Source: Escherichia phage PMBT57. From it: 64,000 nucleotides of DNA. The translations under genes and the position numbers were made by a program. The DNA is taken from the sequence record MG770228.1; one strand, 5' to 3'. The notes under the pieces are model-generated. The model saw nothing but the letters and a program-made list of their open reading frames with translations. It was not told the DNA's origin and ran no database searches. Positions 8,701-45,958 of the stretch are shown here, piece by piece. Each line of letters opens with the position of its first letter. Position 1 is the stretch's first letter.

Positions 8701-8731
8701 AGCCTCCAGGATTAACTGGAGGCTTTTTTAT
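8701..8731 (+). terminator. rho-independent terminator
   Basis: agcctccag - gattaa - ctggaggct followed by TTTTTT; ends the tRNA/ncRNA region. Confidence 0.7.
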
Positions 8732-8752
8732 TTAATTAAATAAGGAAGCAAG

Positions 8753-9124
8753 ATGAACCGTATTACTGAAGAACATATTGATAGCATCATTGAAGGTGTT
8801 TACTACTTCAATATGGCTAAAGCTGTAGAGAATGAAGCAGTTCTGATTCCTGAAGACCATTTAAAAGCATTGAGTACAACTACTGTTTGTGCACTGGTTA
8901 TTTCTAATGGGTTCACTATTACTGGTAAATCTGCTTGTGTTGACCCTAATACCTTCAATGAGGAGTTAGGTAAGAAATATGCTTACGAACAGGCCATTGA
9001 TAAGGTATGGGAATTGGAAGGCTATCTGCTTAAGCAAAACCTGTATGAGAAAGCTCAGAGCCAGGAAATGCTAAAAGGATTCCTGCAAGATGACAACTGT
9101 GAAGGTGGGGGCTGTAAAATCTAA
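8753..9124 (+). CDS. hypothetical protein (123 aa; N4 gp48-like position)
   Basis: Track ORF with upstream AAGGAAG RBS; no motif recognised. Confidence 0.6.
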   Translation: MNRITEEHIDSIIEGVYYFNMAKAVENEAVLIPEDHLKALSTTTVCALVISNGFTITGKSACVDPNTFNEELGKKYAYEQAIDKVWELEGYLLKQNLYEKAQSQEMLKGFLQDDNCEGGGCKI

Positions 9125-9609
9125 TGGAAATTAAAGTTCACTTTACTAATTACATCGGAACCAAATGTGTAAATGGTTTCCCGATGAACAAGGCTGCCTA
9201 CTGCAAACTTCGTGGTTGGGATGTACCTACTAATGAAGACCAGTTAGAAGAGGGTTACTTAGTAGAGTACCCCGATTCTAAACCTAACCATGAACAATTT
9301 CGTGGTTATATTAGCTGGTCACCTAAAGCTGCATTTGAAGAGGCATACTGTGATGTGGACAAAGGCTGCACGTTTGGCCACGCAGTAGAGCTTATGAAAT
9401 CAGGTTTTAGAATGTCCCGTAAGGGCTGGAATGGAAAAGGAATGTATATCACATTGGTATCCGGTGAAAACTGGGCTATGGATAAACATGAAAATACCGT
9501 ATGCATGAAACGGGATTGGCTGGGTATTAAAACCGCTGACAATGAATTTATGCCCTGGGTTCCATCTCAATCAGATGTATTAGCAGAAGATTGGGTACTA
9601 GCTCAGTAA
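9124..9609 (+). CDS. two-domain protein with DUF2829/Tad2-like C-terminal domain (N4 gp49-like position)
   Basis: C-terminal TFGHAVELMKSGFRMSRKGWNGKGMYITLV...MPWVPSQSDVLAEDW matches my recollection of the DUF2829 signature (KGWNGKG ... PW.PSQ.D.LAEDW); the N-terminal ~80 aa is a separate domain; ATG overlaps the upstream stop. Confidence 0.5.
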   Translation: MEIKVHFTNYIGTKCVNGFPMNKAAYCKLRGWDVPTNEDQLEEGYLVEYPDSKPNHEQFRGYISWSPKAAFEEAYCDVDKGCTFGHAVELMKSGFRMSRKGWNGKGMYITLVSGENWAMDKHENTVCMKRDWLGIKTADNEFMPWVPSQSDVLAEDWVLAQ

Positions 9610-9617
9610 GAAATAAA

Positions 9618-9642
9618 GCCCCTCTAGTGAGGGGCATTTTTT
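9618..9642. terminator. bidirectional rho-independent terminator between convergent + and - units
   Basis: gcccctc - tagt - gaggggc flanked by A-run upstream and T-run downstream; lies between + gene end 9609 and - gene end 9644. Confidence 0.75.
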
Positions 9643-9643: not shown

Positions 9644-12600
9644 TTAGTGGGTAAGGTTGAACCAAGGGTTGAGGGTAGGTGCTCTTAGTCCTTGTCCGAA
9701 GCCTAATGAGTAATCCAGTCTTCCTTCAGCCAGCATGGTTAGCATGTTGTCCTGAATTGGCAGACCTACATTACCAAACATGGCAGGAGCAGGTACTACT
9801 GTAGCAATCAGAGAATGTACTGGGTTGTTTCTAATCATGCTCATAGCAACTTTAATGGAACGAATCTTAAAGTTGTAGAACCACATCAGACCCACGCTTT
9901 CCATATAACCACGGAAACGACCAGGCAATCTGTCATAGTTAACAAACTCTTCAGTTACCTGACCCAATGCTTCAGAAGAGGATTTCTTCTTACGTTTCAC
10001 TAAATCATCATAGATGATGGCTTTAGCAATGAAGTCTGAATACTCTACTGTTTTCTGGATACCCTGGAACAGAGCAGTGTCCTTAGCAATAAGAGCATAA
10101 CGGCCAGCATTACGTACTTTTTCTGGAAGTTTATTAGCAAGTTTTTCCATGTACTCATAAATCTTACCTTCAGCTACTAACAGGTCATCACGACTAATAC
10201 CAGCATCAGCAATAGAAGAGAACTCACCTGCTTCAATCAAAGGCCAGATGCTCATACGACGATGGCTATCAGTAATAGATTGAATCTCGGTTTTAAGTTT
10301 ACGAACCAGATTAGGATTGCCTTCAGCAGCACGTAATTCTGCTTCTGCATCAATCTGACGTAAGCGAGATTTAATGTACTGATTAATCTCTGACGCCTTA
10401 CGAGGAATATTCACAGCAATATCCTTAACAGGAACACCACGTCCAATCATCTGGTAGATGTTAGCAAGGAAGTTAACTGCCGGTACTACAACAGATTTAA
10501 CAACAATTACTGTCTTAGCATCCTTCACCAAGTTCTGAATGGTATTTTCAGCATTCATTACTACATGATATGCCTTATTACCAAATGCACCGAGGAACAT
10601 CTTCTTAACAGTATCAAGGGTGCTAGGTGACCAACGAGAGTTACCAGTCCATACATCACCAATAGATGCAGCACGATAGCCAAGTGCATCATTCAGCATA
10701 TCCCTACGAACCCATAACTCATCCTTACCAAAGAGTTCTTCAGCCTTACGACGAGTCTCAATGTTCATTAGGTTAATTGCATCAGCCAGTACTGGGTCAT
10801 CAATTTTACCTAACAGGTTTACATATTGAGATTTATTAGCACTGGAGTCTTTAATGTCTTTCTCATACATAGCATGTAATTGCTCAATGAGAATGTCATT
10901 AAAACGTTGTGCTTTAGCCTCTTCCACCTGACGACCACGCCATACACCCACCATCTTAGCAAAATGATTGTCTTGGTTTAGATGCTTCAACATATTAGGG
11001 TCAACGGATTGCTCATAAGCAACTACCTGACCTTTGCTGTTATAAATTGGCATCAGTGGTTCACGCCCACGTTCACCTTTAGCCAGAGCTTTGGTAATAC
11101 GCTCTACGGTTGGTTTGTCAGTAATACGACCAGCAACCATAGTACCTAACGTAAAGCCAGTACCAATATCCACGCCACCAGCAGTATTACGAACGTTCTG
11201 AAGAATACCTTGAGAGTATGGAGCACGGGCAGCTACTGGGCTGAAGTAATAACCTTTAGAACCAGTACGGAAACCAGTGCTTCCCTGATAAGTACCAATA
11301 CGAGTAAAAGATTGGCTATTTAACTTAGCAAACTCTTTATCGTCAGCAATAATCAAATTCACACCTTGCTGGTTCTCTACAGGGATATAGCCCTTAAAGT
11401 GATTCAGCAGAGTACGATTATCGCCTTTAGCTTTACGCATCTCTTCAGTACGTTGACCCACCATATAAGCAATGGAGAACTCCATACCTTCCACTTCTGA
11501 TTGAGCCAATTCTGACAAAAGGTCACGGTCAGACTTATTCATCAATTCCAGAGAGTACAAAGTAGTGAGCTTATCAATAGCAGCTACATCTGCCACAGGA
11601 CTATTAGTAATACGTTCACCTAACAAACGACTAATAGCATGGGCATTACGAAGGAGGTTATTACCTACTTCTCCTGTAATCATGTATTGAGCCAGTTGCT
11701 TAGATTTCTTCTGAACCAGATTCCAGTTTCTACCTGCTTGGTTCTGAATCTCTTTTTCCAGAGTAGAGATTTCATCTTTCACTTTCTTGGATGAAGAGAG
11801 TAAATCTCTAATTTCAGCCATGCTCATAGTTTCACGTAGAACAGCTAAATCTGTTTTACCTAAACCAGTATGCATTGCAGACCACTCGGTATCAGTCAAT
11901 TTACGAGAGAACTTACCAGCAATGACTGTAGGTAAATGCTCACGGAATTGTTGACGGTCTTGAGAAATCTGGCTCTTAACCAATTTGATTAAGTCATAGA
12001 CATTGGCATTAGTCTTAGTACGACCAACAATGTCATTAACTAAGTCATGGAAAGGTTGCCATACTTTACCCTGGTTCATAGCAGTCATAACACCCTGAGC
12101 CACTATTTCACCTTGTTTTTCAGATGCAATAGCAGCAGTCAGTTTAGCCAGATGAGCAACACCTTTAGCAGCTACATTAGAAGGGTTAGCAATTACCTTA
12201 TCTGCCTTTTCAATAACAGTTTCAGATAACCGTTCAATGCTATCCGTTACGTACTGATTAGCACGGTCAATGAAGTTACCGGTAGGGGTTGCTACAGCAT
12301 CATAGAAGGACTCTCGTTTCAGAGCAGCAGCCATGATTGTTTCTGACAGAGCATCAATACTATCCTGAACATTAGTAGCCTTCTGGTCACCCGCCATACG
12401 ACGGTTCAGAGATTCCATTACCTGAGTACCTGCATTGGTAAGCAGAGTATCTACATCATTCCCTAATTTCTTATCTGCTTTAGGTACAGGCATTTCTTTA
12501 ATGATTGAACGTAGTTCTTCATTAACCATAGCCAGACCCAGGAATGTAGGTAACAGACTGGTTCTGCCTTTGGCATCTACTTCAACCAGATTAGCACCAG

Positions 12601-15600
12601 AGATAGTGTCATATTTCTGTTGAGCGTAGTAACGGTCAGCAGGGTTAGTACTATCAGGGTCAGCCATGAAATGTTCTACCGTAAGGTGTTTCATTACATG
12701 GGTATAAAGTTCCTGAGCACGAGCCATAGCGTGTGGGTCAATTGCAGCTTCAGTTGCTAATGCAGCAGTAACCATCTGGAATACAGATTGTTCCTGGGCA
12801 GTCATATTGAAGCCACGAGACTGAACATCACGAACTAGTCGAGTAGCACTCATTAATGCATTAGCCACATTGCCACGACGTTCTACTTCTGTAACTGGGT
12901 CAGTACGAAGGTAATCAGTTACCAGTTTATCGAAGGTCTGATTCAACTGAGACAGACGTTCATTATTACCATATGCTTTGCTATGGAACAGTGTGCCATC
13001 TTTAGCTACTGCCTGAGTTGTAGGTTGGCTACGCATCAAAATTGCAGAATTAAACAGCAGATTAGAGAACATATCTTCTCCCAATGCAGGAGCTTGTTTA
13101 CGTCCCCAAATCAATTTCTTAATGGCCTGATAAACATCTTTCACCATTTGAACCAGTGAAGATGTTCTCTTCTGTTTAGCAGCCAGAGCACGGTTAGCTA
13201 ACCCCCAAGCCATAAACTCATTAAGAGCAGCAGCTTTAGAAATAGCTGGGTCAACAAAGCCATTACTCAAATGACCTTCAATAGTTGCAATAGCATCAGC
13301 ATATGCTTCTCTCATTTCTGGAGAATCTTTGGAAATATCCAGAGAACGGAACTGTTCCATCAGACCTTCCAGGTTCTCAATAGCCTGCTTAGATGTAGGG
13401 CTTACTTCATTACCCTGATAGAAGGAATAAACTTCCTCGAAGGTAGAAGCATGAACCAGTTCATGAATGAGGGTTTCCATAGATGGGCTAACCAGATAAA
13501 TGGTCTTATCGTCGAAGTTAGTCCAGCCATAAATATTACCTGCCTGAGCTTCTTCCATTTCCTGAGAAGTCAATTCAGTAACATTCTTCTGACGAGCATA
13601 TTCTGCAACCTGAGTAGGTGTACCGTAGATAATCTTATAGTCTTTAGCTGCCAGTGATTTCTGAATCTCTGCAAGAGTAGCTGCCTGAGTAGATGGCAGA
13701 TTACTAATCTTAGCCAGGTTACGAATAGCAGTAGCAGACAGGATACGAACACCGGATGCCTTATGCTCACAGCCTACCATACCAAAGTCTGGATTCACTG
13801 GTTCTTTTTCAGAAACAGTTTCTTCTTTGACTTCAGCCTTAGCCTTAGCGACTTTTTGTTTACGGGCTTCTAACTCTTCACGGAAAAGTTTATTCAGTTC
13901 ATCAGCCTGTTGTTCAGGAGTCATATTGCTGAGGTCAATCTTACCGTTGTTCTGATAAGGAGCACCTACAGCAGCCATCTGGTCAATGGACAGATTTACC
14001 TTATCCAGTACCTTATGGCGAATATCTACACCCAGTGCAATATTACGTAAGTTACGTTCAATCAGAGATGCAGCATTAGCAATATCATCTACAGTAGCAT
14101 TCTCACGTTGGTCATATTCCAGGGCAGATTTACCAATTGCTTCCAATGCTTCAGGGGACAACTTGCTGAAATCTACATTCTTCATGAACTTAGCATATGA
14201 TTCGTAAACATTCTTAATAGGGTTACCCTGCCAAGAAGTGTAAACAGCTTCATTAGCCTTACGACTAGCATCAGTAATGTCATTCAAACCAATGTTCATA
14301 CCATCAAAGATTTTGAGGGTATTCTTTGGTGCACCTTTCATAGTGGAAAGAGTTTGCATCATCATGCCATCACCAGTACCAATAGTCATAAATGGAATAC
14401 CTGCTACACCAGCCTGTGCTGGGGCATAGATACTCATTGGTACACGCATACGGTCATCAAGGTTAGTAGCTAATACCTGATTTGCTACTTCTGCATTTTC
14501 TGAGCCAGCAATGTAGAAAGTCTGAGAACCAGTCTCAATCATAGGAGCTAAGTTATTCAGAGAAGCCTGAATATCATTAAGTTCTTTCTGAGTAAGAAAA
14601 TCACCTTTCTTCCATGTCGGGTCTTTAGCCTTCTCTGTCAGTTTCTCCTGTACTCGTTGTTTGAACATATCTTCCAGCACTACAGATTGAATCTGAGTAG
14701 CTTTCTGTAATTGTTCAGTGGAGTACACCAGACTTTCACCTACAGTCTGAGTAATACCATTACGTAGTGGTTCTACAAAGAAGTGCAGCATATTTTCCTG
14801 AAGTGCCTTCAGTTGCTCACCCTTAATGGTATAGGTCTTAGGATTGATTTTCCCTTTGGCTCCTGCACCTGTGGATTGTAGTTCCAGTACACCTTTACGT
14901 TTAACAGGAACAGTAGAAGTCAGTGTTTCCATATCTTTCAGGAAACGAGCAAGAAGTTCTTCAGCATGTGCTTCTGAAGCAGCTTGCTTACCAAACATTG
15001 CCATAGCAGCAGAGATGTTTGGGTCTTTAGCACGAGCTTTCAGCACATCAGACATACGCTCATAGATGGCATCAGTAACAGAACTAACCAGCTTACCTGC
15101 AATACCACGAGCACCAGAACCATAGATGGTAATAGTCAGCGGGTTCTTAGCAATACCACGTTTAAGTTCTAAAGCACCATTCTCACCAAGATTAATATCC
15201 GGTAAGAACAAATCCATCAGAGAAAGAAGACTGTCTATCTGGGACTGAATAGGCATATTAGAAGCGTAGTTACTACGTAACTTACCCAACGATTCCATCA
15301 AAGCATTAGTGGATGCTTGATATAAATCATTATTGTCAGCAGTAGAACGATGCTCATTCATGGTCTTATTTGGAGAACCAATGAACAAGCCACCTTTGGC
15401 AATGTTACGAATCCAGTCAGGGGTAAACAGGCCACCTGTCATTAGCATCATGGCATTGATTGGACCATTAGTAACACCATCTGCTTCTACATACAGTGGG
15501 GTTACAAATGCAGATTTATCCTCTGCTACTAAGTAACGGGAATACTCCATAAGAGCCATCAATGCTACGAATGACTTCCTATCTCCTAATGCTGTATTCA

Positions 15601-18600
15601 GAACATCAACTGCATTTTCTGGTAAGGAACCAGTGGTATTAAACTCAACCATCATATCAATGGCTGGTTTCAGATTACCTTCCAGTAATTTAGTTAACTC
15701 ATCTGACATAACCTCACGAGTCATAGTATGGACTTTAATGTCCAATGCCTGAGCCAGACCTAACTGGAATGCAGAGAAGTCTTCATTGTTCTGGTTCGAT
15801 AAATCCAAAGTAGCTTTAGTAGGTAGGATAGCCTCACGAACCAGTTTGGCTGATTGAGGATTGTATTTACCTAACATCTGCATACGACCAACACGGGTCA
15901 TATTGTATGCATAGTGAATAGGCACAGTAGAGATGTCTTCACTCTGTGCTCTTACCTGCTCAATGACGGAGAACAGTTGGTTGTAAGAGTCCTCTACTGA
16001 ACGGTTCTTACCTTCCAGAGATTTAGCATGATTATCATTAAGTAACTCTTTATTCAGAGTACCAGCACCCATCAGTTCGAGAATACGGTCTTTACCTAAC
16101 GTCTCATAGAATTGAACCATTGGAGTGTGTACATAGAACTCTGTAGCCTGTTCTGCTTTCAATGCAGCCTTCTGTTCTGGAGTATTACGAACAGCAGGAT
16201 TACGAAGCTGAGTATTAGCTACAGGAGGAATGTCATTACCAAAGAACATCTTCTCTGTAGGATTTACTAAAACAGCTTCTTCAATAGCAGTAGGGAAGCT
16301 ATTAATTGGGTCGAAGGAATCCAGTTCAGTAATGGTGTACAGACCAATCGTCTTCTTATTATCTGGGTCAATTTCTGACATATCCACGATGTTCTCTACA
16401 ACATCAGTAGACTCTACAAATGCAGCCAGAATTTCAGCAGCCATTGCTGTAGGGATACCTTTGGTATAACCCAATGGAGCATTTGGATTACGAGATAATC
16501 CCCAGTAAGACTCAATTTTCTGAGCCAGGGAACTAACTGCTTCAGTGAGTGTCATACCAGTATCAAATTGCTCTACTAAACCTTCTGGCAGCAAGGCTTG
16601 GTCAATACCAGTAATAGCAGCAACATCTTTTGCATCTTTGATAGCAGTATTGCTGGTAGCAGTAAGTCTCCACTGAAGACCCGCTAATACAGCAGTCTGT
16701 AGCAATTGCTCATTGTACTTAAAGGTATCCCCATCCTGTTCAACGATGTTAAGTAACTTACCGCCTACCCAACGGTTGGCTTCCGTACCCTGAGCAAAAC
16801 GTTTACCAACATCCTTAGTGTTAAGGAACTTAGCCAGACGGGAACGAAGAATATCAGCAATACCTTCCCCATGTTCCATGAGTTCTTTATATCGCTTAAT
16901 AACTTCCCCATTAAAAGCAGGATTAGCAACTTCTTTCTCAGTAAAGAGTTCATAACGAGCACGAGAAGACAGAGCTTGAGCTACCTCTTTTAGAGGTGCT
17001 TCTGAACCAACAGTACGGGATTTCTGTTCTTCCAGTAAGGTAAAGGACAATTTGAAATAGTTCTTAATACCCTCTGCTTTAGAATCAGCAGTACCTACCA
17101 ATGAGGGGTAAACAGCATCGATACCTTCTCTTAATTCTTCTGTAACTGTACGTTCTTTTACAGAAGTTTCAGTTTCTTTAACAGATTCAGTAGGTTGCTC
17201 GATGGTATCCTCATTAGTGAGGGTAGCATCCTGTTTTTCAGACTGGCTCACAGGTTCTTTTATAGCCTGTGGTCTAGACTCTTTAGTAGTAGGTTCTGTT
17301 TTAACAGGTTCACTAACAGGAGTCTTAGTCTGTACAGTAGATGTAACTGGTTCCTGTTTTGTAACAGGAGTTTCTTTAACCTGATTCACGGAGTCAGCTT
17401 TCTGTTGAGAAGAAGCAACGTCTCGATTGCCTTGACGGAATGCCTTGACCACCTCAGCAGCAGGGGCGTTAAGACGTGAATCCAATGGAGTAACTTTTAT
17501 ATGACTGACCTTCAGTTCCGGGTAAGCCGAAGCGAGGGCATTAGCAATATCCGCTACCGTTTTCGCTTCAAGAGCAACTTGCTGGGCAAATTTAACCGAC
17601 TTAGTGTCATAGGGATTGACCCCCAATCCGGTACGGCTACGAACCCATTCTCTGTCAGCAGTAAGAGCTTGGTAGTGGACAGACTTATTCTTATCCGCAT
17701 TCCCCGTAACAAGATGCTCATTCAACGCTCCAACCTTATTCTGCATGTGCTGGGCGAACTGCATAAAGTCGTTCAGGTAAGCGGAGGCCAACTCGAAATT
17801 ACCAGAGTTATACGCAGACCGAATCCTATTCGCATGTTGCAACGCAGAGTATTGTCCTTCCTGAGTTCTGCTCTCATCCGTCTTAATCTGTTTACTCACA
17901 ATGTCTTGAGGACGTAATCCAAGACGGGCAGCTTCTGCATCATATTCCCGTGCCCCCTTCAGGATTGCAGCAGCATTCTGAAGGGCAGCAATTTGGCGAT
18001 TATTCAGTTTAATACGACCATCAGCAGCATGTTTAAGAACAACATTTACAGATTCTGGATTGAGCTTTTCAGGAGCTACTTCAGCAGCTAATGCTACGTT
18101 CTGCATTTCTTGTGGACTGGATTCTTCAGTCACATCCAAAGAACCATTCTGGGCAGATTCATTAATCATTCGATTAATAACATTCAGTGCACCAATTACT
18201 TTTGGTGTGTTCTGAATATTAGCTGTCAGATTTGTATAACGATTGAGTAACTCAATAGCCGGAGAATCTTTAGGAATGCTATCCAGTGCAGCAGGGTCAC
18301 GGTTAATGAATTGCTCAAACTCTGAAACAGCATCATACATATAAGATGCAGCTTCCATCAGTGCTTGAGGATTAGATTCATCTAATGTGTTAACTAGGTC
18401 TGCTAACTTTTGAATAACCTGTACTTGGTCAGTAGAACCAGCTACAGCATTACGAATATGCTCTGGTGCTTCCTGATAATTTTCAGGATTAAAACGAGTA
18501 GCATTCATTAAGTCAGAAACATACTGGTGTGCTGCAACTTTCTGTTCTGGAGTAGCATCAGTTGCTTCAACAGCATCACGAATAGTAACTTCTGCTTCTG

Positions 18601-20146
18601 GTGCTTGAGCCATAGCTTCTTGTGCTGCCTGTGCAACATAGTCATCAGCAACAGGAGATGCTTCTTCATTCTGCTTCATAACCCGTTCACCACGAGCTAC
18701 CAAAGTGTTCTTAATAGGAGAAACAACCTTACCTGCTACACTACCAGCAGCTTTAACACCAGCCATTGTGGTACGCAATACAGGAGCAGTTGCAGCACCT
18801 GCTAAACGAGCAGCACCAGCCGGAGCCTGTACAACACCAGCAGAACCAAAGCCATAAAGAGCACCTAAACCAGCTTGTGTACCGACACCTTTAAGCAGGT
18901 CTTGGTTCTTATCAATGTTTTGTTGCTGTGCAATATTCTGAGCCAGTTGGCCTGTAGCACCCTGAACACCTTCTTCCACTGTTTCACGGGCAAGGTTCAT
19001 ACCTACAGCACCTAAAGAACCAGCACGGAAAGGAGCCATCTCAAAACGAGATACTAGAGGACCAGTTGCAGCAGCAATAGGTAATTGAATAGCAGCAGCA
19101 GTAAGACCAGTTTCAGATGCAGTTTGACGACGAGCCTGTTCAGGGGACATACCATCTTTAATATGTTGCTGATAAACAGGAGACTTCTCTAAGTCTTTAA
19201 GACTCATCTTCATAATTTCGTCAGCAGTTTGTTGGTATGCACCACCAGCTTCCATTGCACCAACACCAATCATACCTGGTGCAGCTCTGCCTACAGTAGA
19301 GGCAATACGAGCCAGTGACTGAGTACCAGTACCTGCATCAATAGCACCAGCCAATGCAGCACTACGAAGAGTATTTACTGGAACAACTGCTTTACCCAGT
19401 AAAGATGCACCCCTTAATACAGGACCAGCACCTAATAGAGAACCTACCCCTTCCGCTAACCCATCAGAAATAATAGAGTCAGTTTGAGCAGCGTTCTCAA
19501 TTGAACCTACAAAATCACGTCCAAATTTAGATAAGGAAGCTACTATGTCATTAGTGCCTTCTTTCTTATCTGTTTGATACTGACGTTCACTCTCTACTTC
19601 ACTCATTAAATTACGAGCAGCAAAGAGCTTACGTTTATCTTGTAATGCTTGGCTTTGGGTAGCATGGACAGCATCATTAAACTTACTCAATTGTTGGGCA
19701 ATGACAGCACCTGCATCATCGTTGAGTAAGCCTGCCCCAAGAGCACCAATGCCCCCAAGGGTATTAACAAAACCAAGACCAACACCAGTAGCAATATCCC
19801 CCAGTTCTTCCCCAGGAGTTCTTGTAGTAACTGAATCATTAAATACCTGGTTCCCTGCATCAGCACGAGCGTTGATAAGTTGTAAGCCTTGCTCAACCCC
19901 ATACTTATTCATGATTTGCATTGGAGTCAGATTCATGAAATCTGATTGCACTGTCCCTGGTTCAAATGCATTAGCCCCAACATTACCAGTACGGGCAGCT
20001 TGCATTTGATAAGCAGCATCAGGAGAAACAAGAGGAGTAGTGACACCTTGTTCAGCTTTCTTCTGGGCGGTTGCAGTAGAGACGTCAACTTGCTTTGCAT
20101 TGGTTACGCTGTCTGCGAACCCAGCCAGTCTATCAAATACTGACAT
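9644..20146 (-). CDS. giant virion-encapsidated RNA polymerase (N4 gp50-like vRNAP, ~3500 aa)
   Basis: Single 10.5-kb ORF; track start gives 3506 aa, but the 7th codon ATG (MSVFDRL) has AGGAAA 7 nt upstream and gives 3500 aa, the size I recall for N4 vRNAP; no other phage family has a single-chain protein of this size at this position. Confidence 0.85.
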   Translation of the reverse strand: MSVFDRLAGFADSVTNAKQVDVSTATAQKKAEQGVTTPLVSPDAAYQMQAARTGNVGANAFEPGTVQSDFMNLTPMQIMNKYGVEQGLQLINARADAGNQVFNDSVTTRTPGEELGDIATGVGLGFVNTLGGIGALGAGLLNDDAGAVIAQQLSKFNDAVHATQSQALQDKRKLFAARNLMSEVESERQYQTDKKEGTNDIVASLSKFGRDFVGSIENAAQTDSIISDGLAEGVGSLLGAGPVLRGASLLGKAVVPVNTLRSAALAGAIDAGTGTQSLARIASTVGRAAPGMIGVGAMEAGGAYQQTADEIMKMSLKDLEKSPVYQQHIKDGMSPEQARRQTASETGLTAAAIQLPIAAATGPLVSRFEMAPFRAGSLGAVGMNLARETVEEGVQGATGQLAQNIAQQQNIDKNQDLLKGVGTQAGLGALYGFGSAGVVQAPAGAARLAGAATAPVLRTTMAGVKAAGSVAGKVVSPIKNTLVARGERVMKQNEEASPVADDYVAQAAQEAMAQAPEAEVTIRDAVEATDATPEQKVAAHQYVSDLMNATRFNPENYQEAPEHIRNAVAGSTDQVQVIQKLADLVNTLDESNPQALMEAASYMYDAVSEFEQFINRDPAALDSIPKDSPAIELLNRYTNLTANIQNTPKVIGALNVINRMINESAQNGSLDVTEESSPQEMQNVALAAEVAPEKLNPESVNVVLKHAADGRIKLNNRQIAALQNAAAILKGAREYDAEAARLGLRPQDIVSKQIKTDESRTQEGQYSALQHANRIRSAYNSGNFELASAYLNDFMQFAQHMQNKVGALNEHLVTGNADKNKSVHYQALTADREWVRSRTGLGVNPYDTKSVKFAQQVALEAKTVADIANALASAYPELKVSHIKVTPLDSRLNAPAAEVVKAFRQGNRDVASSQQKADSVNQVKETPVTKQEPVTSTVQTKTPVSEPVKTEPTTKESRPQAIKEPVSQSEKQDATLTNEDTIEQPTESVKETETSVKERTVTEELREGIDAVYPSLVGTADSKAEGIKNYFKLSFTLLEEQKSRTVGSEAPLKEVAQALSSRARYELFTEKEVANPAFNGEVIKRYKELMEHGEGIADILRSRLAKFLNTKDVGKRFAQGTEANRWVGGKLLNIVEQDGDTFKYNEQLLQTAVLAGLQWRLTATSNTAIKDAKDVAAITGIDQALLPEGLVEQFDTGMTLTEAVSSLAQKIESYWGLSRNPNAPLGYTKGIPTAMAAEILAAFVESTDVVENIVDMSEIDPDNKKTIGLYTITELDSFDPINSFPTAIEEAVLVNPTEKMFFGNDIPPVANTQLRNPAVRNTPEQKAALKAEQATEFYVHTPMVQFYETLGKDRILELMGAGTLNKELLNDNHAKSLEGKNRSVEDSYNQLFSVIEQVRAQSEDISTVPIHYAYNMTRVGRMQMLGKYNPQSAKLVREAILPTKATLDLSNQNNEDFSAFQLGLAQALDIKVHTMTREVMSDELTKLLEGNLKPAIDMMVEFNTTGSLPENAVDVLNTALGDRKSFVALMALMEYSRYLVAEDKSAFVTPLYVEADGVTNGPINAMMLMTGGLFTPDWIRNIAKGGLFIGSPNKTMNEHRSTADNNDLYQASTNALMESLGKLRSNYASNMPIQSQIDSLLSLMDLFLPDINLGENGALELKRGIAKNPLTITIYGSGARGIAGKLVSSVTDAIYERMSDVLKARAKDPNISAAMAMFGKQAASEAHAEELLARFLKDMETLTSTVPVKRKGVLELQSTGAGAKGKINPKTYTIKGEQLKALQENMLHFFVEPLRNGITQTVGESLVYSTEQLQKATQIQSVVLEDMFKQRVQEKLTEKAKDPTWKKGDFLTQKELNDIQASLNNLAPMIETGSQTFYIAGSENAEVANQVLATNLDDRMRVPMSIYAPAQAGVAGIPFMTIGTGDGMMMQTLSTMKGAPKNTLKIFDGMNIGLNDITDASRKANEAVYTSWQGNPIKNVYESYAKFMKNVDFSKLSPEALEAIGKSALEYDQRENATVDDIANAASLIERNLRNIALGVDIRHKVLDKVNLSIDQMAAVGAPYQNNGKIDLSNMTPEQQADELNKLFREELEARKQKVAKAKAEVKEETVSEKEPVNPDFGMVGCEHKASGVRILSATAIRNLAKISNLPSTQAATLAEIQKSLAAKDYKIIYGTPTQVAEYARQKNVTELTSQEMEEAQAGNIYGWTNFDDKTIYLVSPSMETLIHELVHASTFEEVYSFYQGNEVSPTSKQAIENLEGLMEQFRSLDISKDSPEMREAYADAIATIEGHLSNGFVDPAISKAAALNEFMAWGLANRALAAKQKRTSSLVQMVKDVYQAIKKLIWGRKQAPALGEDMFSNLLFNSAILMRSQPTTQAVAKDGTLFHSKAYGNNERLSQLNQTFDKLVTDYLRTDPVTEVERRGNVANALMSATRLVRDVQSRGFNMTAQEQSVFQMVTAALATEAAIDPHAMARAQELYTHVMKHLTVEHFMADPDSTNPADRYYAQQKYDTISGANLVEVDAKGRTSLLPTFLGLAMVNEELRSIIKEMPVPKADKKLGNDVDTLLTNAGTQVMESLNRRMAGDQKATNVQDSIDALSETIMAAALKRESFYDAVATPTGNFIDRANQYVTDSIERLSETVIEKADKVIANPSNVAAKGVAHLAKLTAAIASEKQGEIVAQGVMTAMNQGKVWQPFHDLVNDIVGRTKTNANVYDLIKLVKSQISQDRQQFREHLPTVIAGKFSRKLTDTEWSAMHTGLGKTDLAVLRETMSMAEIRDLLSSSKKVKDEISTLEKEIQNQAGRNWNLVQKKSKQLAQYMITGEVGNNLLRNAHAISRLLGERITNSPVADVAAIDKLTTLYSLELMNKSDRDLLSELAQSEVEGMEFSIAYMVGQRTEEMRKAKGDNRTLLNHFKGYIPVENQQGVNLIIADDKEFAKLNSQSFTRIGTYQGSTGFRTGSKGYYFSPVAARAPYSQGILQNVRNTAGGVDIGTGFTLGTMVAGRITDKPTVERITKALAKGERGREPLMPIYNSKGQVVAYEQSVDPNMLKHLNQDNHFAKMVGVWRGRQVEEAKAQRFNDILIEQLHAMYEKDIKDSSANKSQYVNLLGKIDDPVLADAINLMNIETRRKAEELFGKDELWVRRDMLNDALGYRAASIGDVWTGNSRWSPSTLDTVKKMFLGAFGNKAYHVVMNAENTIQNLVKDAKTVIVVKSVVVPAVNFLANIYQMIGRGVPVKDIAVNIPRKASEINQYIKSRLRQIDAEAELRAAEGNPNLVRKLKTEIQSITDSHRRMSIWPLIEAGEFSSIADAGISRDDLLVAEGKIYEYMEKLANKLPEKVRNAGRYALIAKDTALFQGIQKTVEYSDFIAKAIIYDDLVKRKKKSSSEALGQVTEEFVNYDRLPGRFRGYMESVGLMWFYNFKIRSIKVAMSMIRNNPVHSLIATVVPAPAMFGNVGLPIQDNMLTMLAEGRLDYSLGFGQGLRAPTLNPWFNLTH

Positions 20147-20209
20147 AGTAGGTTTCCTATACAAACTTATATCTATTAGAAATCACACTATACCTAGTGT
20201 AAGGACGAG

Positions 20210-20233
20210 AAAAAAGCCCCGAAGGGCTTTTGT
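20210..20233 (-). terminator. rho-independent terminator between the 644-aa gene and the vRNAP gene
   Basis: agccc - cgaa - gggct flanked by A5 and T4, giving a T-run on the - strand. Confidence 0.6.
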
Positions 20234-20246: not shown

Positions 20247-22181
20247 TTAACGAGGAAATATATCAGGGATACCCAATCGACGCCCGGCATCTCTGCCTAA
20301 ACTTCTCCGGTTTGCCTCGCTCTCTTCCTGTTTAATATTTTGTAGGCTCTTAATATCCAAATTCTGAGGGTCAGCAGCTACAGCACTACGAGCACCATCA
20401 AGAAGACGTTTAGCAGTGTTAACTCGCTCCTGATAGCGAGGTAGTACACTTCTAAGGTTTTCCTGACCGGTTTGAATACGACGCTGTACTTCACGTAAAT
20501 CAGCAAGTGCAGTATCTAACGTATTCTGTGCTGCATAGATGTTTGATTGAATTTGAGCAGTAAGCTGATTACGGGCATTCTGTTCAATAGCAGTACCGGT
20601 AGTTGCAAGTTTTGCATTTGCTTCTACGGCTGCTTTATCCAGTTGGTAATCACCACCCAAATCAATAACATCAATATCAAAGGCATTTCGAATACCACTA
20701 AACCATCCCTCTGGTTTACCGGTGATACTACGTTGAATGATTGCTCCTGCCATAGCGGGAGAAATAGCATTCTGTTTTGCTACCTCATTGATTTGTCGAA
20801 CCAGTGCACCTTGGTTAATGCCTTTCAGTTCATTGCTATCAATAATACGTTTAGCCACCTGACCAGTCGTAGAAGGGTCAACAGTAGCAGCTTGGTATTC
20901 AGGCAGCAGAGTATTACCAATATTCTGCATATTACGAGTGCCAACAGTATTACCAGCAACAGAAGTGAATGCTTGTTCCTGTAATGGATTAATAGAATTA
21001 CCTGTTTCTGCTTGAGCAATGTAATCCTTCATTTCATCCCATGACAGGTTCTTATAAGCACCAGGGGTATCATCTGGTAAAGCAGCCCATGTACTCTTCA
21101 GATTACCATTCTTACGAGCATTAAAAATAGCTTCACCCAGTTTGTCTTGGTTCTCCGGAGACATAGGAATGTTCTGCCAATCTTCACCAAATACCTTTGG
21201 AGCAAAGTCTTTAAGGGTATCTTGGTTAATCTGGTATGCACCAACAGGAGAAGCACCTAGTGTCTTCTTCATAGTGTCTTGATGCTGAACCACCTCACCT
21301 AAGTTCATCTGAGTAATAGGTACATCAGTTGGTGTGAACTTATAGGTAGTGTCATATGCAGAACCATTCCGAGTACCCTGAGTACCAGGAGGAGATAGAG
21401 ATGCAGAACCAGTTCCCGGAGTATATGCACCTGGATATGCTCTATCTAACTGAGATAGTGCACGACTTACTGCTCCTGGTGACATTTGGTCGAACGTACC
21501 CTCTGCAAGCATACGAGCATCGTCAGCACTGTATGCACCACGACGAATATTATTCAGTAACTGCATAGCAGCCTGAGTATCCGCATCGTTACGCATATCA
21601 ACACCTAAGTCGAATAAGCTACGACGTTGACCAATACCAGCAGTACCCTGTCCTTGAAGGTTGTTCATGTAGTCCATAACAACACCAGCAGGAAGGGTTT
21701 TTAATACATCCCCATACTGAGCCTGTGCTGCCTGAACCTTTCTTGGGTCACCAGATTGATAAGCCAGAGCCAATTCCTGTAATGCAGGGGCAGCAGCATC
21801 AGTAGCTGCATTTACCTTCATGGTTCTGTCATTACTGTATCGAGTGAAATCCAGATTTTGTTGTTTAGATGCTTGGTCTAACAGATTGCCAGCACGATTA
21901 TCTAAGTTCTCCATAGTACGAGAAGAAATTAGAGAAGGGTCATAGCCAGCAAATAATGCTCCAGAAGCTAAGGCATTACGATACTCATTAGGGTCTTGGT
22001 AACGCATGGCTTCAGCCATAATTGCATCACCAGCTTGCTGTCTTGCAGAGTTTCGAAAATCACCTAATGCATTACTCAATCCGGCAGTGGCATTACCCAG
22101 CATATTGGAGAAAGTACGAATACTATCCCCAACACCAGAGAAAGAAGGAGCATCAACATTACGCCATGTAATTTGAGCCAT
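20247..22181 (-). CDS. virion/injection-associated protein (644 aa; N4 gp51-like position)
   Basis: Track ORF immediately upstream of the vRNAP gene in the late operon; central GAYQINQDTL segment faintly recalls lytic-transglycosylase motifs (unverified). Confidence 0.55.
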   Translation of the reverse strand: MAQITWRNVDAPSFSGVGDSIRTFSNMLGNATAGLSNALGDFRNSARQQAGDAIMAEAMRYQDPNEYRNALASGALFAGYDPSLISSRTMENLDNRAGNLLDQASKQQNLDFTRYSNDRTMKVNAATDAAAPALQELALAYQSGDPRKVQAAQAQYGDVLKTLPAGVVMDYMNNLQGQGTAGIGQRRSLFDLGVDMRNDADTQAAMQLLNNIRRGAYSADDARMLAEGTFDQMSPGAVSRALSQLDRAYPGAYTPGTGSASLSPPGTQGTRNGSAYDTTYKFTPTDVPITQMNLGEVVQHQDTMKKTLGASPVGAYQINQDTLKDFAPKVFGEDWQNIPMSPENQDKLGEAIFNARKNGNLKSTWAALPDDTPGAYKNLSWDEMKDYIAQAETGNSINPLQEQAFTSVAGNTVGTRNMQNIGNTLLPEYQAATVDPSTTGQVAKRIIDSNELKGINQGALVRQINEVAKQNAISPAMAGAIIQRSITGKPEGWFSGIRNAFDIDVIDLGGDYQLDKAAVEANAKLATTGTAIEQNARNQLTAQIQSNIYAAQNTLDTALADLREVQRRIQTGQENLRSVLPRYQERVNTAKRLLDGARSAVAADPQNLDIKSLQNIKQEESEANRRSLGRDAGRRLGIPDIFPR

Positions 22182-22191: not shown

Positions 22192-22644
22192 TTAACGAGT
22201 TAAGCGATTAGCTGCAATGTAAGCATCAGCCGTAGATTGGTCACGATTTTCTGCAACAGCACGACTACGAGCACGGTCTTCCAGAGCAGTGTTATAGGAC
22301 TTAATCTGGTTATTCAGATTAGTGTTAGTAACATCTTTAGCAAAAGAGAACTGATTCTTAGCTAACTTGTTAGCCTGTAATGCACCATAGATATTACCCA
22401 GTGCATTAAGACCACCTAACCCCAACTGGAAGGTAGGAATGTTCAGACCCAGTTGGTCAGTAAGCCCTTGAGTCTGTCCACCGGTATTCCCTGTAGCACC
22501 ACCAGTAATGTTCTGAAGCCAGTCATTACTAAGGATGCCGGATTGCATAGGGTTATAGTTCATGGTTGGGGTATTAAAGGAACCATATCCATAGCCAAAA
22601 TTGCTTTGTGCAGATGGGGTTCCAAAAAGGAAATTAGTATCCAT
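22192..22644 (-). CDS. Gly/Asn-rich low-complexity virion protein (150 aa)
   Basis: Track ORF; G/N/T-rich composition; 10-nt gap to the next gene. Confidence 0.6.
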   Translation of the reverse strand: MDTNFLFGTPSAQSNFGYGYGSFNTPTMNYNPMQSGILSNDWLQNITGGATGNTGGQTQGLTDQLGLNIPTFQLGLGGLNALGNIYGALQANKLAKNQFSFAKDVTNTNLNNQIKSYNTALEDRARSRAVAENRDQSTADAYIAANRLTR

Positions 22645-22657: not shown

Positions 22658-25315
22658 TTACGTATCTAAATCAAGCTGCAACGTTATATCTGCAAAGTTG
22701 GTAATCATGTTGTTAGACATATCAGCTATATCATGACCAGTCATAAGAGTACGGCTAAGGAATGAATCCAGTGGTTCAAATTGTTGGCCTACATTAGTTA
22801 GGTTCATTGGGTCAATGTAACCCATGCCCTCAGTGCCAAACATTTCCTCGTACTTTTCCTGAATGGTTTTCATCTGGTCACGGTACTCTGCCATAAGTTT
22901 CTCTGTCTTTTTGACAGTTTCCATAGCAGAAGCATTGATGTAATCACTTATGCCATTTCCTACAGATGAAGTGAGTTTAATGATGTTGTCTGCTTTCATC
23001 ATTTCACCCAGCATCGTAGACATGGATGAACCAGTGGATAAAGCTGTGCCGACATTCATGGCTACCATAGAGGCAATAGTAGCAACAATGATTCCAATCT
23101 TATCCCCAAGCAGACTAACAGAGACTGTTTGAATAATGGACATCAGAATCATAGCTGCAATGGCATTAGCCACAGCCCCAACGATAATAGCAGCTAACCC
23201 TGCAAAACCTAATGCAGCACCAATAGAAGCAGCAGTACCCATTACCCCAGCACCAGCAGCAGGGGTAAAGAACACAGACACCACTACTGCAACAACAACC
23301 ACTACTACTTTAAAGATGCCAGACTGATACCATTTCTTCTTAACTTTCTTATATGAGTTAAGAACCAGATAACAACATGCTGTAGATAACTGAGTACCAT
23401 TTACCAAAGACATACTACGGTAAATGTTGTTATGAAGAGGGATGATAAATCCAGACTCTTCATCATCATTTAGTGCATCTACACCAGAAATGCTTACAGA
23501 TTTATTCTTGTAAACATTATTGTTATGGTTCAGGCCATAGACAGAAATCTTCCTCCATGAGTTATCCCCATCCTGCCAATACATTGTTATCTTATCTAGC
23601 CTGTAGATAGTAAACCCAACTTTGTCATTACCCTTTTCAGAGTACATAACAGCTTTCTGCATAAGGACTACAGTACCTTCATAAGCAAACTTGAGCTGCC
23701 CTTTCTTGGCTCCAGAGAATGCTTTACCTGAACCAACGGACTCTTCAATGAAGTTCCAACTAATAGTCATGTTGTAATGGTATCCACCGTTAGAACGGAT
23801 ATTAATGGATTTAGAAGGTATTGTTGGGTATACGGGTCTTTTAGGGGGCTTCCCTATGGGAATATCCCTATTACCACTACGAGATTCCCACCATTCCTGG
23901 TAAGCATCAAAGTCCCTGTTAGCCTGAGCAAAGCCTTCTACCAAAGCATCCATAGTTGGGTAGTTTGGGTCAGCAGGCATTGACTGATTCACTAACTGGA
24001 AGAATCTGTAGATGTACTCTTTAGCTGTATTTTCAGGACTATTAAGAGAACAACCAAATACAGCATAGATATACTGAATATCACCAATATCTTTGTTCTT
24101 CTTTAGGTCATCCATAATGTCAGAAATCTTACCCCCTGTAGCCTTCTTAAAGGCTTTCTTACAAAGAGTATATGTAGAACCAGAAATCCAGTTCTTATCA
24201 CTACGGATAGGGATGAATGAATAGAATCTGTTATTGGTTGTCTTATTAATAAACAGGGCATCAAGGACGGCATTACCACTGTTCTGTTTATAAATAAACA
24301 GTTGAGGCATACCACCAGCAGACATAGTAGTAACTACATCTGTATTCTGATAAGACCATGTATAACCTAAAGTATCTGTAGTTACTGTAGTAGTTCTGGT
24401 TTCAGTAACCCCACCACCTAAATCAATAACTTCAGTGTTTGTAGTGGAACCAGTGGATACAGTGCCAGTCTGTACCTGGGTCATTGTAGTCTTACGAATA
24501 ATGATTAAGCCTACTTCACTTGGTTCACGAAATTCTTTCTCGTAAACATCTGAGAAGTTAGTCCAACTAACCTGTTCTTCTTCAGTATTGGTACTTTCCT
24601 CATCAGGTCTGCCATCAGAGAATACACTCTTAATATGAGTAACTGTCTTCAGGGTAGCTGACTTAGGAGTATGGTTCTGAGATACCTGAGTCCATTCAGA
24701 AGTAGAAGGTAAGTCATCAGCAGATGATACAGATACAGCAGGGTGAACCACTGGGTCTGCAACACTAGTAGGCTGTATGTAGTAATAGTTCACATACAGA
24801 TACATTGCATCCTGACTGAAATTCTCTGGGTAAAAGGATAACTCACTACCATCAGTAGCAGTGAGTACAATCCTGTCATCATCCATGATGTCTATTTCAA
24901 ACTCTTCAGTAATACGGTCTGGATAATTCTCATAGAGGAATTTATCAGCCCATTCCTCAAAATCACCAAATCCAATCCTACTGCTCTGAACCTGTACCTC
25001 ATAACCTGCTTTTTGAGGAACTTGCCATTTAACTACTTCAGGGTCTATCTGAGACAGTATTGACAAGTTCCCGTAAGCAATACCAATTGAAGGGTCATAG
25101 TTAGTTGCAGCCCAACCAGGGAATCTACGTAAACGAATGCCAGGTCCATTTAAATAAGAGTCAGTGATGGTATCACCCATACTAAAGTCAGATTTACTGA
25201 CGATGTTACCAATCACCGTAGTCTTTAAATAATTTGGACGTTTATGTATATCCCCTGCCAAATTGTAGACAGAGGATGCTACGTAGATTTTAGTCTTACT
25301 GCTAAATAGTCCCAT
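22658..25315 (-). CDS. large virion protein with C-terminal polytopic hydrophobic region (885 aa)
   Basis: Track ORF; C-terminal ~120 aa is strongly hydrophobic (VVVVVVAVVVSVFF..., AAIIVGAVANAIAAMILM...), consistent with a membrane-inserting ejection protein. Confidence 0.6.
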   Translation of the reverse strand: MGLFSSKTKIYVASSVYNLAGDIHKRPNYLKTTVIGNIVSKSDFSMGDTITDSYLNGPGIRLRRFPGWAATNYDPSIGIAYGNLSILSQIDPEVVKWQVPQKAGYEVQVQSSRIGFGDFEEWADKFLYENYPDRITEEFEIDIMDDDRIVLTATDGSELSFYPENFSQDAMYLYVNYYYIQPTSVADPVVHPAVSVSSADDLPSTSEWTQVSQNHTPKSATLKTVTHIKSVFSDGRPDEESTNTEEEQVSWTNFSDVYEKEFREPSEVGLIIIRKTTMTQVQTGTVSTGSTTNTEVIDLGGGVTETRTTTVTTDTLGYTWSYQNTDVVTTMSAGGMPQLFIYKQNSGNAVLDALFINKTTNNRFYSFIPIRSDKNWISGSTYTLCKKAFKKATGGKISDIMDDLKKNKDIGDIQYIYAVFGCSLNSPENTAKEYIYRFFQLVNQSMPADPNYPTMDALVEGFAQANRDFDAYQEWWESRSGNRDIPIGKPPKRPVYPTIPSKSINIRSNGGYHYNMTISWNFIEESVGSGKAFSGAKKGQLKFAYEGTVVLMQKAVMYSEKGNDKVGFTIYRLDKITMYWQDGDNSWRKISVYGLNHNNNVYKNKSVSISGVDALNDDEESGFIIPLHNNIYRSMSLVNGTQLSTACCYLVLNSYKKVKKKWYQSGIFKVVVVVVAVVVSVFFTPAAGAGVMGTAASIGAALGFAGLAAIIVGAVANAIAAMILMSIIQTVSVSLLGDKIGIIVATIASMVAMNVGTALSTGSSMSTMLGEMMKADNIIKLTSSVGNGISDYINASAMETVKKTEKLMAEYRDQMKTIQEKYEEMFGTEGMGYIDPMNLTNVGQQFEPLDSFLSRTLMTGHDIADMSNNMITNFADITLQLDLDT

Positions 25316-29796: not shown

Positions 29797-32580
<2,784 letters not shown>

Positions 32581-32600
<20 letters not shown>

Positions 32601-33207
32601 TACACCTCTCCAGAGGGACATTACCAATACGATTAGCAATCCATCCTGTAGTGTACTCAGGCATATTAAGAGATAAATAGTAGTTTAACTGTTTACCATC
32701 TAGAGACTTCAAAATGAGCTTACAGGCTTCTACTTTGCCTCGTTTATTCTGAAGGCTTTTATATGCACTTAGAGTTCCAGAACCGACTTTACCATCAACT
32801 TGTATTTTAGGGTAGTCTTTGCCATTTCTGGAGAAAGCATTAAGAGATTCTTGTAACCAACGAGATGGTCTTGCAGGTCCAGTATTAACACCAGCATCTA
32901 CTAGTTTTTCTGTTACCGCTGGTGATACATCTGCAAACTTAACAAAGCCAGGCTTCAAGATGTAATCGTTGTAATAAATACTTGATGCCATTTCCTGAGT
33001 TAAGTTCTTCATTGAACCATCCCAGTTATACATCGACTCTAGTTCTTGCTTATGCTTTTGAGCAACCTGAATAGTTACACCATGATTAGTTTCACCTCCT
33101 GGGTCTTTGGGGTCATTAACGTATCCACCCTCAACAGCAAATACAGCAGCAATGATTGCTGCAATAACCCCTCCAACACCGCCAACCTTCTTCTTACTTA
33201 TTGCCAC
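32581..33207 (-). CDS. SAR endolysin, GH108-type N-acetylmuramidase (208 aa; N4 gp61-like)
   Basis: N-terminal weakly hydrophobic Gly/Ala-rich segment (GGVGGVIAAIIAAVFA) typical of a signal-anchor-release domain, followed by EGGYVNDPKDPGGETNHGVT, which matches the GH108 catalytic motif as I recall it. Confidence 0.75.
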
Positions 33208-33457
33208 ACCAATCCTCCTTTGGTTTCAAACGAACCAGTCGGCAAATAATATTCAGCACAAAGAGTGCTATAGCAATGTTATTGCCATGTGGAATATCTT
33301 TGAGGATATGTTGGGGTAATGCAGAGAAAGAACTGGATAAGACATCCACACAAGAGAAGAACAATATTGCTAATGTGCTAATCTGAATAGATGCCCATTT
33401 CCAACAACGTTTCCAATTAGGAACCATTTCCACATGTTTGGTTAACTTGCGAACCAT
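33194..33457 (-). CDS. holin/pinholin candidate (two TM helices)
   Basis: Start moved to the internal Met (MVRKL...); two hydrophobic helices (ISTLAILFFSCVDVL, IAIALFVLNIICRLV); overlaps the endolysin start; SAR endolysins are usually paired with pinholins. Confidence 0.45.
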   Translation of the reverse strand: MVRKLTKHVEMVPNWKRCWKWASIQISTLAILFFSCVDVLSSSFSALPQHILKDIPHGNNIAIALFVLNIICRLVRLKPKEDWCGNK

Positions 33458-33774
33458 GCAAAAATCTCCCGTCTGGCAGCAGCCAGTATACCAATAATGA
33501 TACCCGCTCCAGCCCATACCCATTTACCAAACAATCCAGCACCAACAACTTTGTGTTTGATGGTAATGAACTCTTCAATAGTAGGGGCAGACTCAGCCAG
33601 AGACTTTTCTACATTCTCTAGTCGAGTGTCCATCTTATTAATAGACAGTTGAAGGTTACGTACAGCATCATCTAAATCTTGCCGAGATTTAGCATCACGG
33701 GCATTATTTTCGAAGAGTGTCTTCATACGTTCCTCCATTCGAGCTAGGAGCACCTCTACGGATTCATGACTCAT
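33442..33774 (-). CDS. coiled-coil protein with single C-terminal TM helix (holin/antiholin-like lysis accessory)
   Basis: 110 aa; N-terminal charged helical region, C-terminal GAGLFGKWVWAGAGIIIGILAAA transmembrane segment; first gene after a terminator. Confidence 0.5.
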   Translation of the reverse strand: MSHESVEVLLARMEERMKTLFENNARDAKSRQDLDDAVRNLQLSINKMDTRLENVEKSLAESAPTIEEFITIKHKVVGAGLFGKWVWAGAGIIIGILAAARREIFAWFAS

Positions 33775-45197: not shown

Positions 45198-45305
45198 ATA
45201 GGAAGTCTATTAGATAGATACCTTATAATTTTTTCTTAGTGAAAATAGTCATAGTTACTTATGAGTTCAGTATTTGGTGGGGCTACACCCCTTACACCAT
45301 AAGCA

Positions 45306-45314
45306 CCCCCCCCC
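45306..45314. repeat. homopolymeric C9 tract in a 230-nt non-coding region
   Basis: Nine consecutive C read in the intergenic region 45198-45427, flanked by a ggctaca/tgtagcc inverted repeat. Confidence 0.5.
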
Positions 45315-45363
45315 TGTCTTTACTAGTGTAGCCTTAGCCTACCCCACCTTGTACACGTTACAC

Positions 45364-45381
45364 GTTGCTTCGCAACTTATG
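45364..45381 (+). promoter_or_regulatory. candidate vRNAP hairpin promoter (P-a)
   Basis: Perfect 5-bp stem / 3-nt loop gttgc-TTC-gcaac (template-strand loop GAA), followed by TTATGGA with G 11 nt from the loop centre; same architecture as the elements at 45833 and 49820. Confidence 0.55.
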
Positions 45382-45427
45382 GACATGTTGTCCGTATCTT
45401 ATCAATCAACTATTGGAGACTAATACT

Positions 45428-45754: not shown

Positions 45755-45766
45755 CAACAAACAAAT

Positions 45767-45790
45767 GGAGGCTCCTCGGAGTCTCCTTTT
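45767..45790 (+). terminator. rho-independent terminator
   Basis: 8-bp stem ggaggctc / gagtctcc (one G-T pair) with a ctcg loop, followed by TTTT. Confidence 0.5.
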
Positions 45791-45830
45791 ACATAGAACC
45801 GATAGTTCAATAACTATCTACTTTAAAGAT

Positions 45831-45850: not shown

Positions 45851-45958
45851 GATGAAGTAATGCATCCAATCCTGTATGAAATCTTAACCTTTTGTCTGGG
45901 ATTACTTACCGACAAAGTAGTCTCAACTAATCAAAATCAACTATCTGGAGAGTACAAA

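Follow-up and report, generated by a model that had tools for sequence, protein, structure and literature searches.

The 64,000-nucleotide stretch of the Escherichia phage PMBT57 genome analysed here (sequence record MG770228.1, referred to as the window) carries a very long gene on its minus strand, at 9644-20146. This gene is almost certainly gp50 of an Enquatrovirus (species N4), encoding the 3500-residue RNA polymerase that is encapsidated in the virion (vRNAP). A megablast search with the gp50 region returned 15 phage records, all of them from Enquatrovirus and all matching over the full length at 97.7-99.0% nucleotide identity. N4 itself is among them at 97.7%, and the N4 feature under the match is annotated as 'virion RNA polymerase'. 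At the protein level gp50 of PMBT57 and gp50 of N4 (YP_950528.1) are of equal length and differ by 36 substitutions in 3500 residues without any insertion or deletion (98.97% identity), and each of eight other Enquatrovirus proteins differs from the PMBT57 protein at 22-29 positions. An exact protein look-up showed identity, from first to last residue, to AUV59054.1 (UniRef100_A0A2K9VA31) of the 70,857-bp PMBT57 genome; gp50 is an already known gene of a known phage, and its sequence has already been deposited. The product name attached to AUV59054.1 is 'hypothetical protein' in GenBank, despite 99% identity to N4 gp50, and 'Virion RNA polymerase' in UniRef.

Searches against solved structures and protein families point the same way. 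With phmmer, gp50 matched the full-length N4 vRNAP chains in the PDB from end to end (11gp, 9pnq, 9pnr and others; 7630 bits), while residues 997-2103 matched the crystallised mini-vRNAP chains 3q0a, 3c2p and 2po4, and residues 1008-3500 the solved chain 11fw. Pfam identified four vRNAP-specific domains between residues 1324 and 2058, with scores of 77-325 bits where the cut-off is 27: vRNAP_dom_2 at 1324-1440, vRNAP_plug at 1456-1538, N4_RNAP_helical at 1616-1832 and vRNAP_dom at 1914-2058 (PF21867, PF21624, PF21894 and PF21769). No credible Pfam domain was found in the N-terminal or C-terminal domain of gp50, and other Pfam matches, to DUF4088, FSH1, MnmE_helical and DUF6377, were rejected as sub-threshold noise.

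The gene lies in the longest frame of the ORF listing for the window, a single open reading frame (ORF) at 9644-20164 on the minus strand that comprises 3506 codons from the first in-frame TTG and takes up 10,521 of the 64,000 bases (16.4%). From stop to stop the frame extends over 3512 codons, and the runner-up in the six frames of the window, with 1400 codons, is 2.5 times shorter. With the base composition of the window a stop would be expected at about 6% of codons, and the probability of meeting 3506 stop-free codons by chance is about 1e-95. An ATG at 20146, six codons 3' of the TTG, gives a protein of exactly 3500 residues, with a mass of about 383 kDa, and is preceded at a distance of 6 nt by AGGAAA (20153-20158, minus strand), a Shine-Dalgarno-like sequence. 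The same start is annotated in nine related genomes, and the same limits of the coding sequence are found in AL25, Jura, 3HA13, VEc25, AlfredRasser, OLB145 and SPSP. The true start of gp50 is the ATG at 20146, as the ORF, the ribosome-binding site and colinearity with N4 all indicate, and the coding sequence ends with the stop codon at 9644-9646; the TTG at 20164 is the boundary of the maximal ORF. The original prediction had described one uninterrupted frame at 9644-20164 covering 16 percent of the window, its strand unstated, with a start supported by a ribosome-binding site that would give 3500 residues. The frame and the length are upheld by our analysis; the coordinate 20164 stands as the first in-frame TTG and fails as the start. 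The likeness to N4 gp50 that was claimed from the length of about 3500 residues is confirmed by the gap-free alignment, the full-length matches and the four vRNAP domains described above.

Since gp50 is colinear with N4 gp50, the domain limits of the N4 protein, taken from PMC13434306 and PMC13492108, can be transferred to it directly; all of the positions that follow are on the minus strand. The N-terminal domain (NTD) comprises residues 1-906 (17429-20146), and its N4 counterpart is flexible, membrane-associated and needed for genome injection (PMC13434306, PMC13492108). Membrane-spanning helices are predicted within it at residues 224-278 (19313-19477), again by transfer from N4. It is followed by linker 1, residues 907-1006 (17129-17428), which is recognised by its low-complexity composition rich in T, E, V, S and K and would tether the NTD to the polymerase; the N4 linker at this place is about 100 residues long (PMC13434306). 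The polymerase (Pol, or 'mini-vRNAP') domain follows at residues 1007-2104 (13835-17128) and is, according to phmmer and Pfam, a T7-like right-hand single-subunit RNA polymerase. Across residues 998-2103 it differs from the crystallised N4 fragment by nine substitutions, all at non-catalytic positions. Matches to Pol extend to 382 phage records. Linker 2, between Pol and the C-terminal domain, spans residues 2105-2122 (13781-13834; limits from PMC13492108), and density in the N4 vRNAP is unresolved at 2102-2124 (PMC13434306). The remainder, residues 2123-3500 (9647-13780), is the C-terminal domain (CTD), which matches 11fw and the full-length chains. In N4 this alpha-helical domain is needed for encapsidation and autoinhibits the polymerase by packing against palm and fingers (PMC13434306, PMC13492108).

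The catalytic centre of the polymerase is complete. Its conservation was examined in an alignment of the window vRNAP with nine Schitoviridae vRNAPs (from Klebsiella, Gamaleyavirus, Achromobacter, two Pseudomonas, Erwinia, Rhizobium, Sulfitobacter and Vibrio phages), whose identity to the window protein over Pol falls from 76% down to 18%. The catalytic residues of the N4 mini-vRNAP are R424, D559, K670, Y678 and D951 (defined by Kazmierczak et al. 2002 and cited in PMC2784036). In PMBT57 gp50 the T/DxxGR motif is TRVGR at residues 1417-1421 (15884-15898), with R1421 equivalent to R424, and the motif A aspartate is D1556 (15479-15481; D559 in N4), lying in YVEADGVTNGP, where the D-G pair is invariant. 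Motif B, RGIAKNPLTITIY (15122-15160), holds R1663, K1667 and Y1675 (R666, K670 and Y678), all three invariant together with the glycine that comes next, and the motif C aspartate is D1948 (14303-14305; D951) in KIFDGMN. R1421, D1556, R1663, K1667, Y1675 and D1948 are each invariant in all ten vRNAPs, when overall only 3.1% of Pol columns are. The string RGIAKNPLTITIYGSG, the motif B string that bears R1663, K1667 and Y1675, and FDGMN of motif C are recognisably T7-like. It had been supposed that the polymerase core lies in the central third of the protein and that T7-like palm motifs, which could not be seen by eye, would be found there; the position of Pol and its four Pfam domains bears out the former, and the motifs have now been located. 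R1116 and W1126 (16769-16801), corresponding to mini-vRNAP R119 and W129 with their role in recognition of the promoter base -11G (PMC13492108), are both present as well. Conservation of these two residues is limited to the closer relatives and does not reach distant members of the family, which suggests that the details of the promoters may be different in distant schitoviruses. In the same alignment 4.0% of CTD columns are invariant. The CTD was also seen to be more conserved than Pol in seven more distant schitoviruses, for example in Zuri (52% against 44%), Rexella (48% against 38%) and ZC08 (29% against 22%).

As judged from its sequence, gp50 is a member of the N4-like vRNAP family on each of the defining features open to testing (homology, size, family domains, motifs, synteny, cognate promoters), and there is no evidence that contradicts its identification as a vRNAP. 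Its place in the wider T7-like superfamily rests on two things, the motifs and a near-identity to solved structures of the right-hand type: through residues 997-2103 it can be assigned the fold of 2po4, 3c2p and 3q0a (wrist, thumb, fingers and a palm bearing motifs A and C), and the N4 mini-vRNAP crystal chains have the canonical right hand (PMC13492108). Two minor points are to be noted. The first is that the general T7-type Pfam profile RNA_pol (PF00940) gave no match in gp50 at E <= 0.1. This is explained by the known divergence of vRNAPs from T7 RNAP outside the motifs, where the similarity of vRNAP to T7-like polymerases is limited (PMC13492108). The second is that gp50 is not fully devoid of cysteine, this being an accessory hallmark of the family and not a defining one. 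A single cysteine in 3500 residues is still extreme depletion and leaves family membership unaffected.

The N4 vRNAP has been reported to be free of cysteine, possibly owing to its passage into the host (PMC2784036). In PMBT57 the sole cysteine of gp50 is Cys2126, encoded by TGT at 13769-13771 (minus strand), where the relatives have CGT for arginine. The change, R2126C, is a CGT-to-TGT transition private to the window sequence, N4 and eight close relatives having CGT. Cysteine is absent from the vRNAPs of all nine close relatives (N4 included) and from those of nine distant phages (3240-3785 residues), so that the count is zero in 18 of 18 other vRNAPs. It is likewise absent from the 14 other members among the 15 that are listed of the 26 in the 90% cluster of gp50, and from the gp51-like and gp52-like proteins, encoded next to the vRNAP, of PMBT57 and nine distant schitoviruses. 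The other genes of the window have 0.9% cysteine, a level at which about 31 would be predicted per 3500 residues, and gp50 has one.

We are inclined, if only slightly, to regard Cys2126 as real, that is, as a tolerated variant, with the absence of cysteine in the family being a strong bias that is not absolute, at least at the boundary of a flexible linker. C2126 comes two to three residues after the unresolved linker between Pol and CTD, at a site that is probably solvent-exposed and that varies in distant relatives (R, S, A, E or a gap), and a lone cysteine has no partner within its own chain for a disulfide. However, the variant has no independent observation, none having been sighted among the 15 listed members of the 26-member cluster, and the 18 vRNAPs and neighbouring ejection proteins examined all obey the zero-cysteine rule. 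That the deposited genome contains an error of base calling or consensus at this place, the true codon being CGT for arginine and the protein cysteine-free, is a possibility that we consider plausible but somewhat short of probable. It would account for a single private transition and for the finding that, among about 15 billion proteins, the exact gp50 sequence is recorded on one contig only, and the lack of cysteine in all 18 other vRNAPs and in the gp51-like and gp52-like neighbours argues for strong selection against this residue. On the other hand, gp50 has four further private substitutions, P1038L, T3251A, H3330Y and M3418V, so private changes are normal in this sequence, and position 2126 is variable and at the edge of the unresolved linker, where a lone unpaired cysteine could be tolerated. 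Whether the absence of cysteine from all ejected proteins (vRNAP, gp51-like and gp52-like) is a functional constraint, to which PMBT57 would be a natural exception with a tolerated C2126, seems to us evenly balanced.

The reading frame as a whole is sound: set against its counterparts in N4 and in eight further Enquatrovirus genomes, gp50 shows no indel, frameshift or in-frame stop that might split it. Between PMBT57 and N4 there are 200.5 synonymous and 38.5 non-synonymous differences, and the resulting ratio of non-synonymous to synonymous rates (dN/dS) of 0.054 indicates that the frame is under strong purifying selection. By domain the ratio is 0.043 in the NTD, 0.030 in Pol and 0.041 in linker 2 and the CTD together. 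Linker 1 departs from this with 12 non-synonymous against 2 synonymous changes; it contains 11 of the 85 columns that vary among ten close relatives, and 10 of the 36 substitutions relative to N4 fall within it, at residues 947-1006. Such an excess fits the role of an unstructured tether, though the counts are small. That the long ORF does not encode one functional 3500-residue protein, but arose in assembly or represents a fusion or a gene in decay, is hinted at only by the product name 'hypothetical protein' in the source record and is so improbable that we regard it as refuted, given a 10,503-nt frame shared without indels by nine independently sequenced phages, the dN/dS of 0.054, homologues of 3240-3785 residues that are single ORFs throughout the family, and a full-length N4 protein that has been purified and solved by cryo-electron microscopy. 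Three antisense ORFs of 102-138 residues lie on the plus strand within gp50 (13271-13657, 17501-17917 and 19701-20009) and have probably arisen by chance, opposite a long frame that is free of stops.

The two ends of the N4 GenBank record (70153 and 1) abut at window position 45274/45275, and the window is therefore a circular permutation of the N4 map. Just inside the N4 left end, at about 45306-45316, there are some ten consecutive C residues. Three early promoters, P1 to P3, were located beyond this junction with the minus strand as template. P1 (45364-45376) has the hairpin GTTGC-GAA-GCAAC and a template C at +1, and is an exact match to a 21-nt core drawn from the template oligonucleotide in the methods of PMC13434306. 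P2 (45831-45847) has the hairpin AAGAAGC-GGA-GCTTCTT with -11G; the query, based on a crystallisation oligonucleotide, matched once with one mismatch, where no match is expected by chance. P3 (49820-49836) has the hairpin AAGCTGC-GGA-GCAGCTT and, like P1 and P2, is supported by sequence search, hairpin geometry and DNA folding. A CCAAAAG leader is common to P2 and P3, as is a GGA loop; in P1 the loop is GAA and the stem has 5 bp. All three combine stems of 5-7 bp, a G-purine-A loop with the central purine at -11, and C at template +1, and their equivalents in the N4 record lie at 90, 559 and 4548, in agreement with the N4 map. PMC13492108 mentions P4 as a fourth early promoter. It was not found in a strict scan of 45275-53500 for G-purine-A loops closed by perfect stems of 5 bp or more, which gave only P1-P3 and one further hairpin (52135-52147); this was not called as P4, as it is without C at +1. 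After P3 come the genes for the two subunits of RNAPII, the second RNA polymerase of the phage (49877-50686 and 50698-51948).

The genes around gp50 are those of N4. Upstream of it on the minus strand lie gp51 (20247-22181), an ejection protein of 644 residues without cysteine (PHROG 6126, E-value 3e-277) in the position of N4 gp51; gp52 (22192-22644), a cysteine-free ejection protein of 150 residues supported by PHROGs 16623 and 2646 and by synteny with N4; and gp53 (22658-25315), assigned from a PHROG match and the N4 gene order. The order gp53-gp52-gp51-gp50, on one strand in the late (structural) block, is the same in N4 and in nine distant phages. In N4, gp51 makes up the outer-membrane complex and gp52 the periplasmic tunnel (PMC13434306). 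On the other side gp49 (9124-9609, plus strand) converges with gp50, and the gap between them contains a bidirectional intrinsic-terminator hairpin (9618-9635, both strands), which was found in a terminator scan, folds with -14.9 and -18.6 kcal/mol (z about -4) and bears a terminator annotation in AL25, Jura and SPSP. Another hairpin, a stable GC-rich stem-loop followed by U-rich sequence (20212-20231, minus strand), lies in the interval that separates the stop codon of gp51 from the start of gp50, and AL25 and Jura have a terminator annotated there; the simple terminator scan did not call it, and folding recovered it (-11.2 kcal/mol, z -3.75). No sigma-70-type promoter consensus was found in either flank of gp50. 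Elsewhere in the window ARAGORN and Rfam identified four tRNA genes (Asn-GTT, Ser-TGA, Thr-TGT and Pro-TGG) at 7573-8251 on the plus strand, in an ORF-poor gap at 7242-8753. The N4 RefSeq record lists no feature at 32112-33632, the equivalent of this stretch.

Among the closest known systems is N4 gp50 itself (YP_950528.1 / Q859P9; PDB 2PO4, 3C2P, 3Q0A, 9PNQ-9PNW, 11GP, 11FW), which is colinear with the PMBT57 protein and has the same order of domains, NTD-linker-Pol-linker-CTD. Its catalytic and promoter-recognition residues, its neighbouring genes and its three hairpin promoters are all as in PMBT57, and of the 36 substitutions that separate the two proteins R2126C alone breaks the pattern of the family. 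Other Schitoviridae vRNAPs (for example those of Klebsiella phage KP8, Pseudomonas phages Zuri and ZC08, roseophage EE36phi1 and Vibrio phage phi 1) are likewise encoded by single giant ORFs of 3240-3785 residues, preceded by gp52-like and gp51-like genes and invariant in the motif residues; they differ from PMBT57 gp50 in having no cysteine, in a Pol identity of only 18-76% and, in distant members, in not keeping R1116 and W1126. With the T7-like single-subunit RNA polymerases (T7 RNAP and mitochondrial RNAP) gp50 shares the right-hand fold, the T/DxxGR, A, B and C motifs and the catalytic Asp, Lys and Tyr, a likeness that was established for the N4 mini-vRNAP (Kazmierczak 2002, via PMC2784036; PMC13492108). 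However, the vRNAP is about four times larger than these enzymes, is packaged in the virion, injected and autoinhibited by its own CTD, and reads a DNA hairpin on a single-stranded template, being inactive on linear duplex DNA; the PMBT57 protein is also set apart by its failure to match the RNA_pol profile.

A mechanism for PMBT57 gp50 can be proposed by analogy with experiments on N4 (PMC13434306, PMC13492108), to which the present analysis contributes the identity and integrity of the protein, the conservation of its active site, its cognate promoters and the proteins ejected with it. About four copies of the vRNAP would be packaged per virion, in a manner that would need the CTD. Upon infection gp51 and gp52 may build a channel across the envelope, and gp50 could then thread the tail channel of about 30-35 Å as loosely connected modules, or 'beads on a string', its NTD tethering it to the inner membrane. 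The CTD, lying on the palm and fingers with a contact between the plug and the motif B loop, would keep Pol autoinhibited. Hairpins at P1-P3 would be extruded by gyrase-dependent negative supercoiling and stabilised by host SSB, and transcription would be switched on once a hairpin promoter is bound and the CTD released. Pol would then transcribe the early genes, those for the RNAPII subunits included, and transcription may also help to pull the remaining genome into the cell. Packaging of PMBT57 gp50 in the virion and its injection are made likely by its 99% identity to the N4 protein, and rifampicin-resistant transcription from single-stranded hairpin promoters may be expected of it in the same way.

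The identity of gp50 explains the layout of the window, in which early genes are driven by hairpin promoters readable only by the injected enzyme, middle genes are read by the phage RNAPII, and late genes, gp50 among them, lie on the opposite strand. The original prediction had gp50 defining the whole architecture of the genome through its hairpin promoters and also identifying the family of the phage. Within the window the former holds, with P1-P3, gp51, gp52 and gp53 and the RNAPII subunits all present, and the latter agrees with the DNA matches, which are all to Schitoviridae. The gene fixes the window as that of an N4-species schitovirus, and the finding matters little beyond correct annotation. 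The census of cysteines is a minor by-product; within the set of proteins examined it favours the old view that cysteine has to be kept out of proteins that thread through tail and envelope, and it points to one possible exception. If the absence of cysteine is indeed a constraint and C2126 is tolerated in spite of it, PMBT57 would be a ready-made probe of the part played by periplasmic oxidative folding or intermolecular disulfides in vRNAP translocation.

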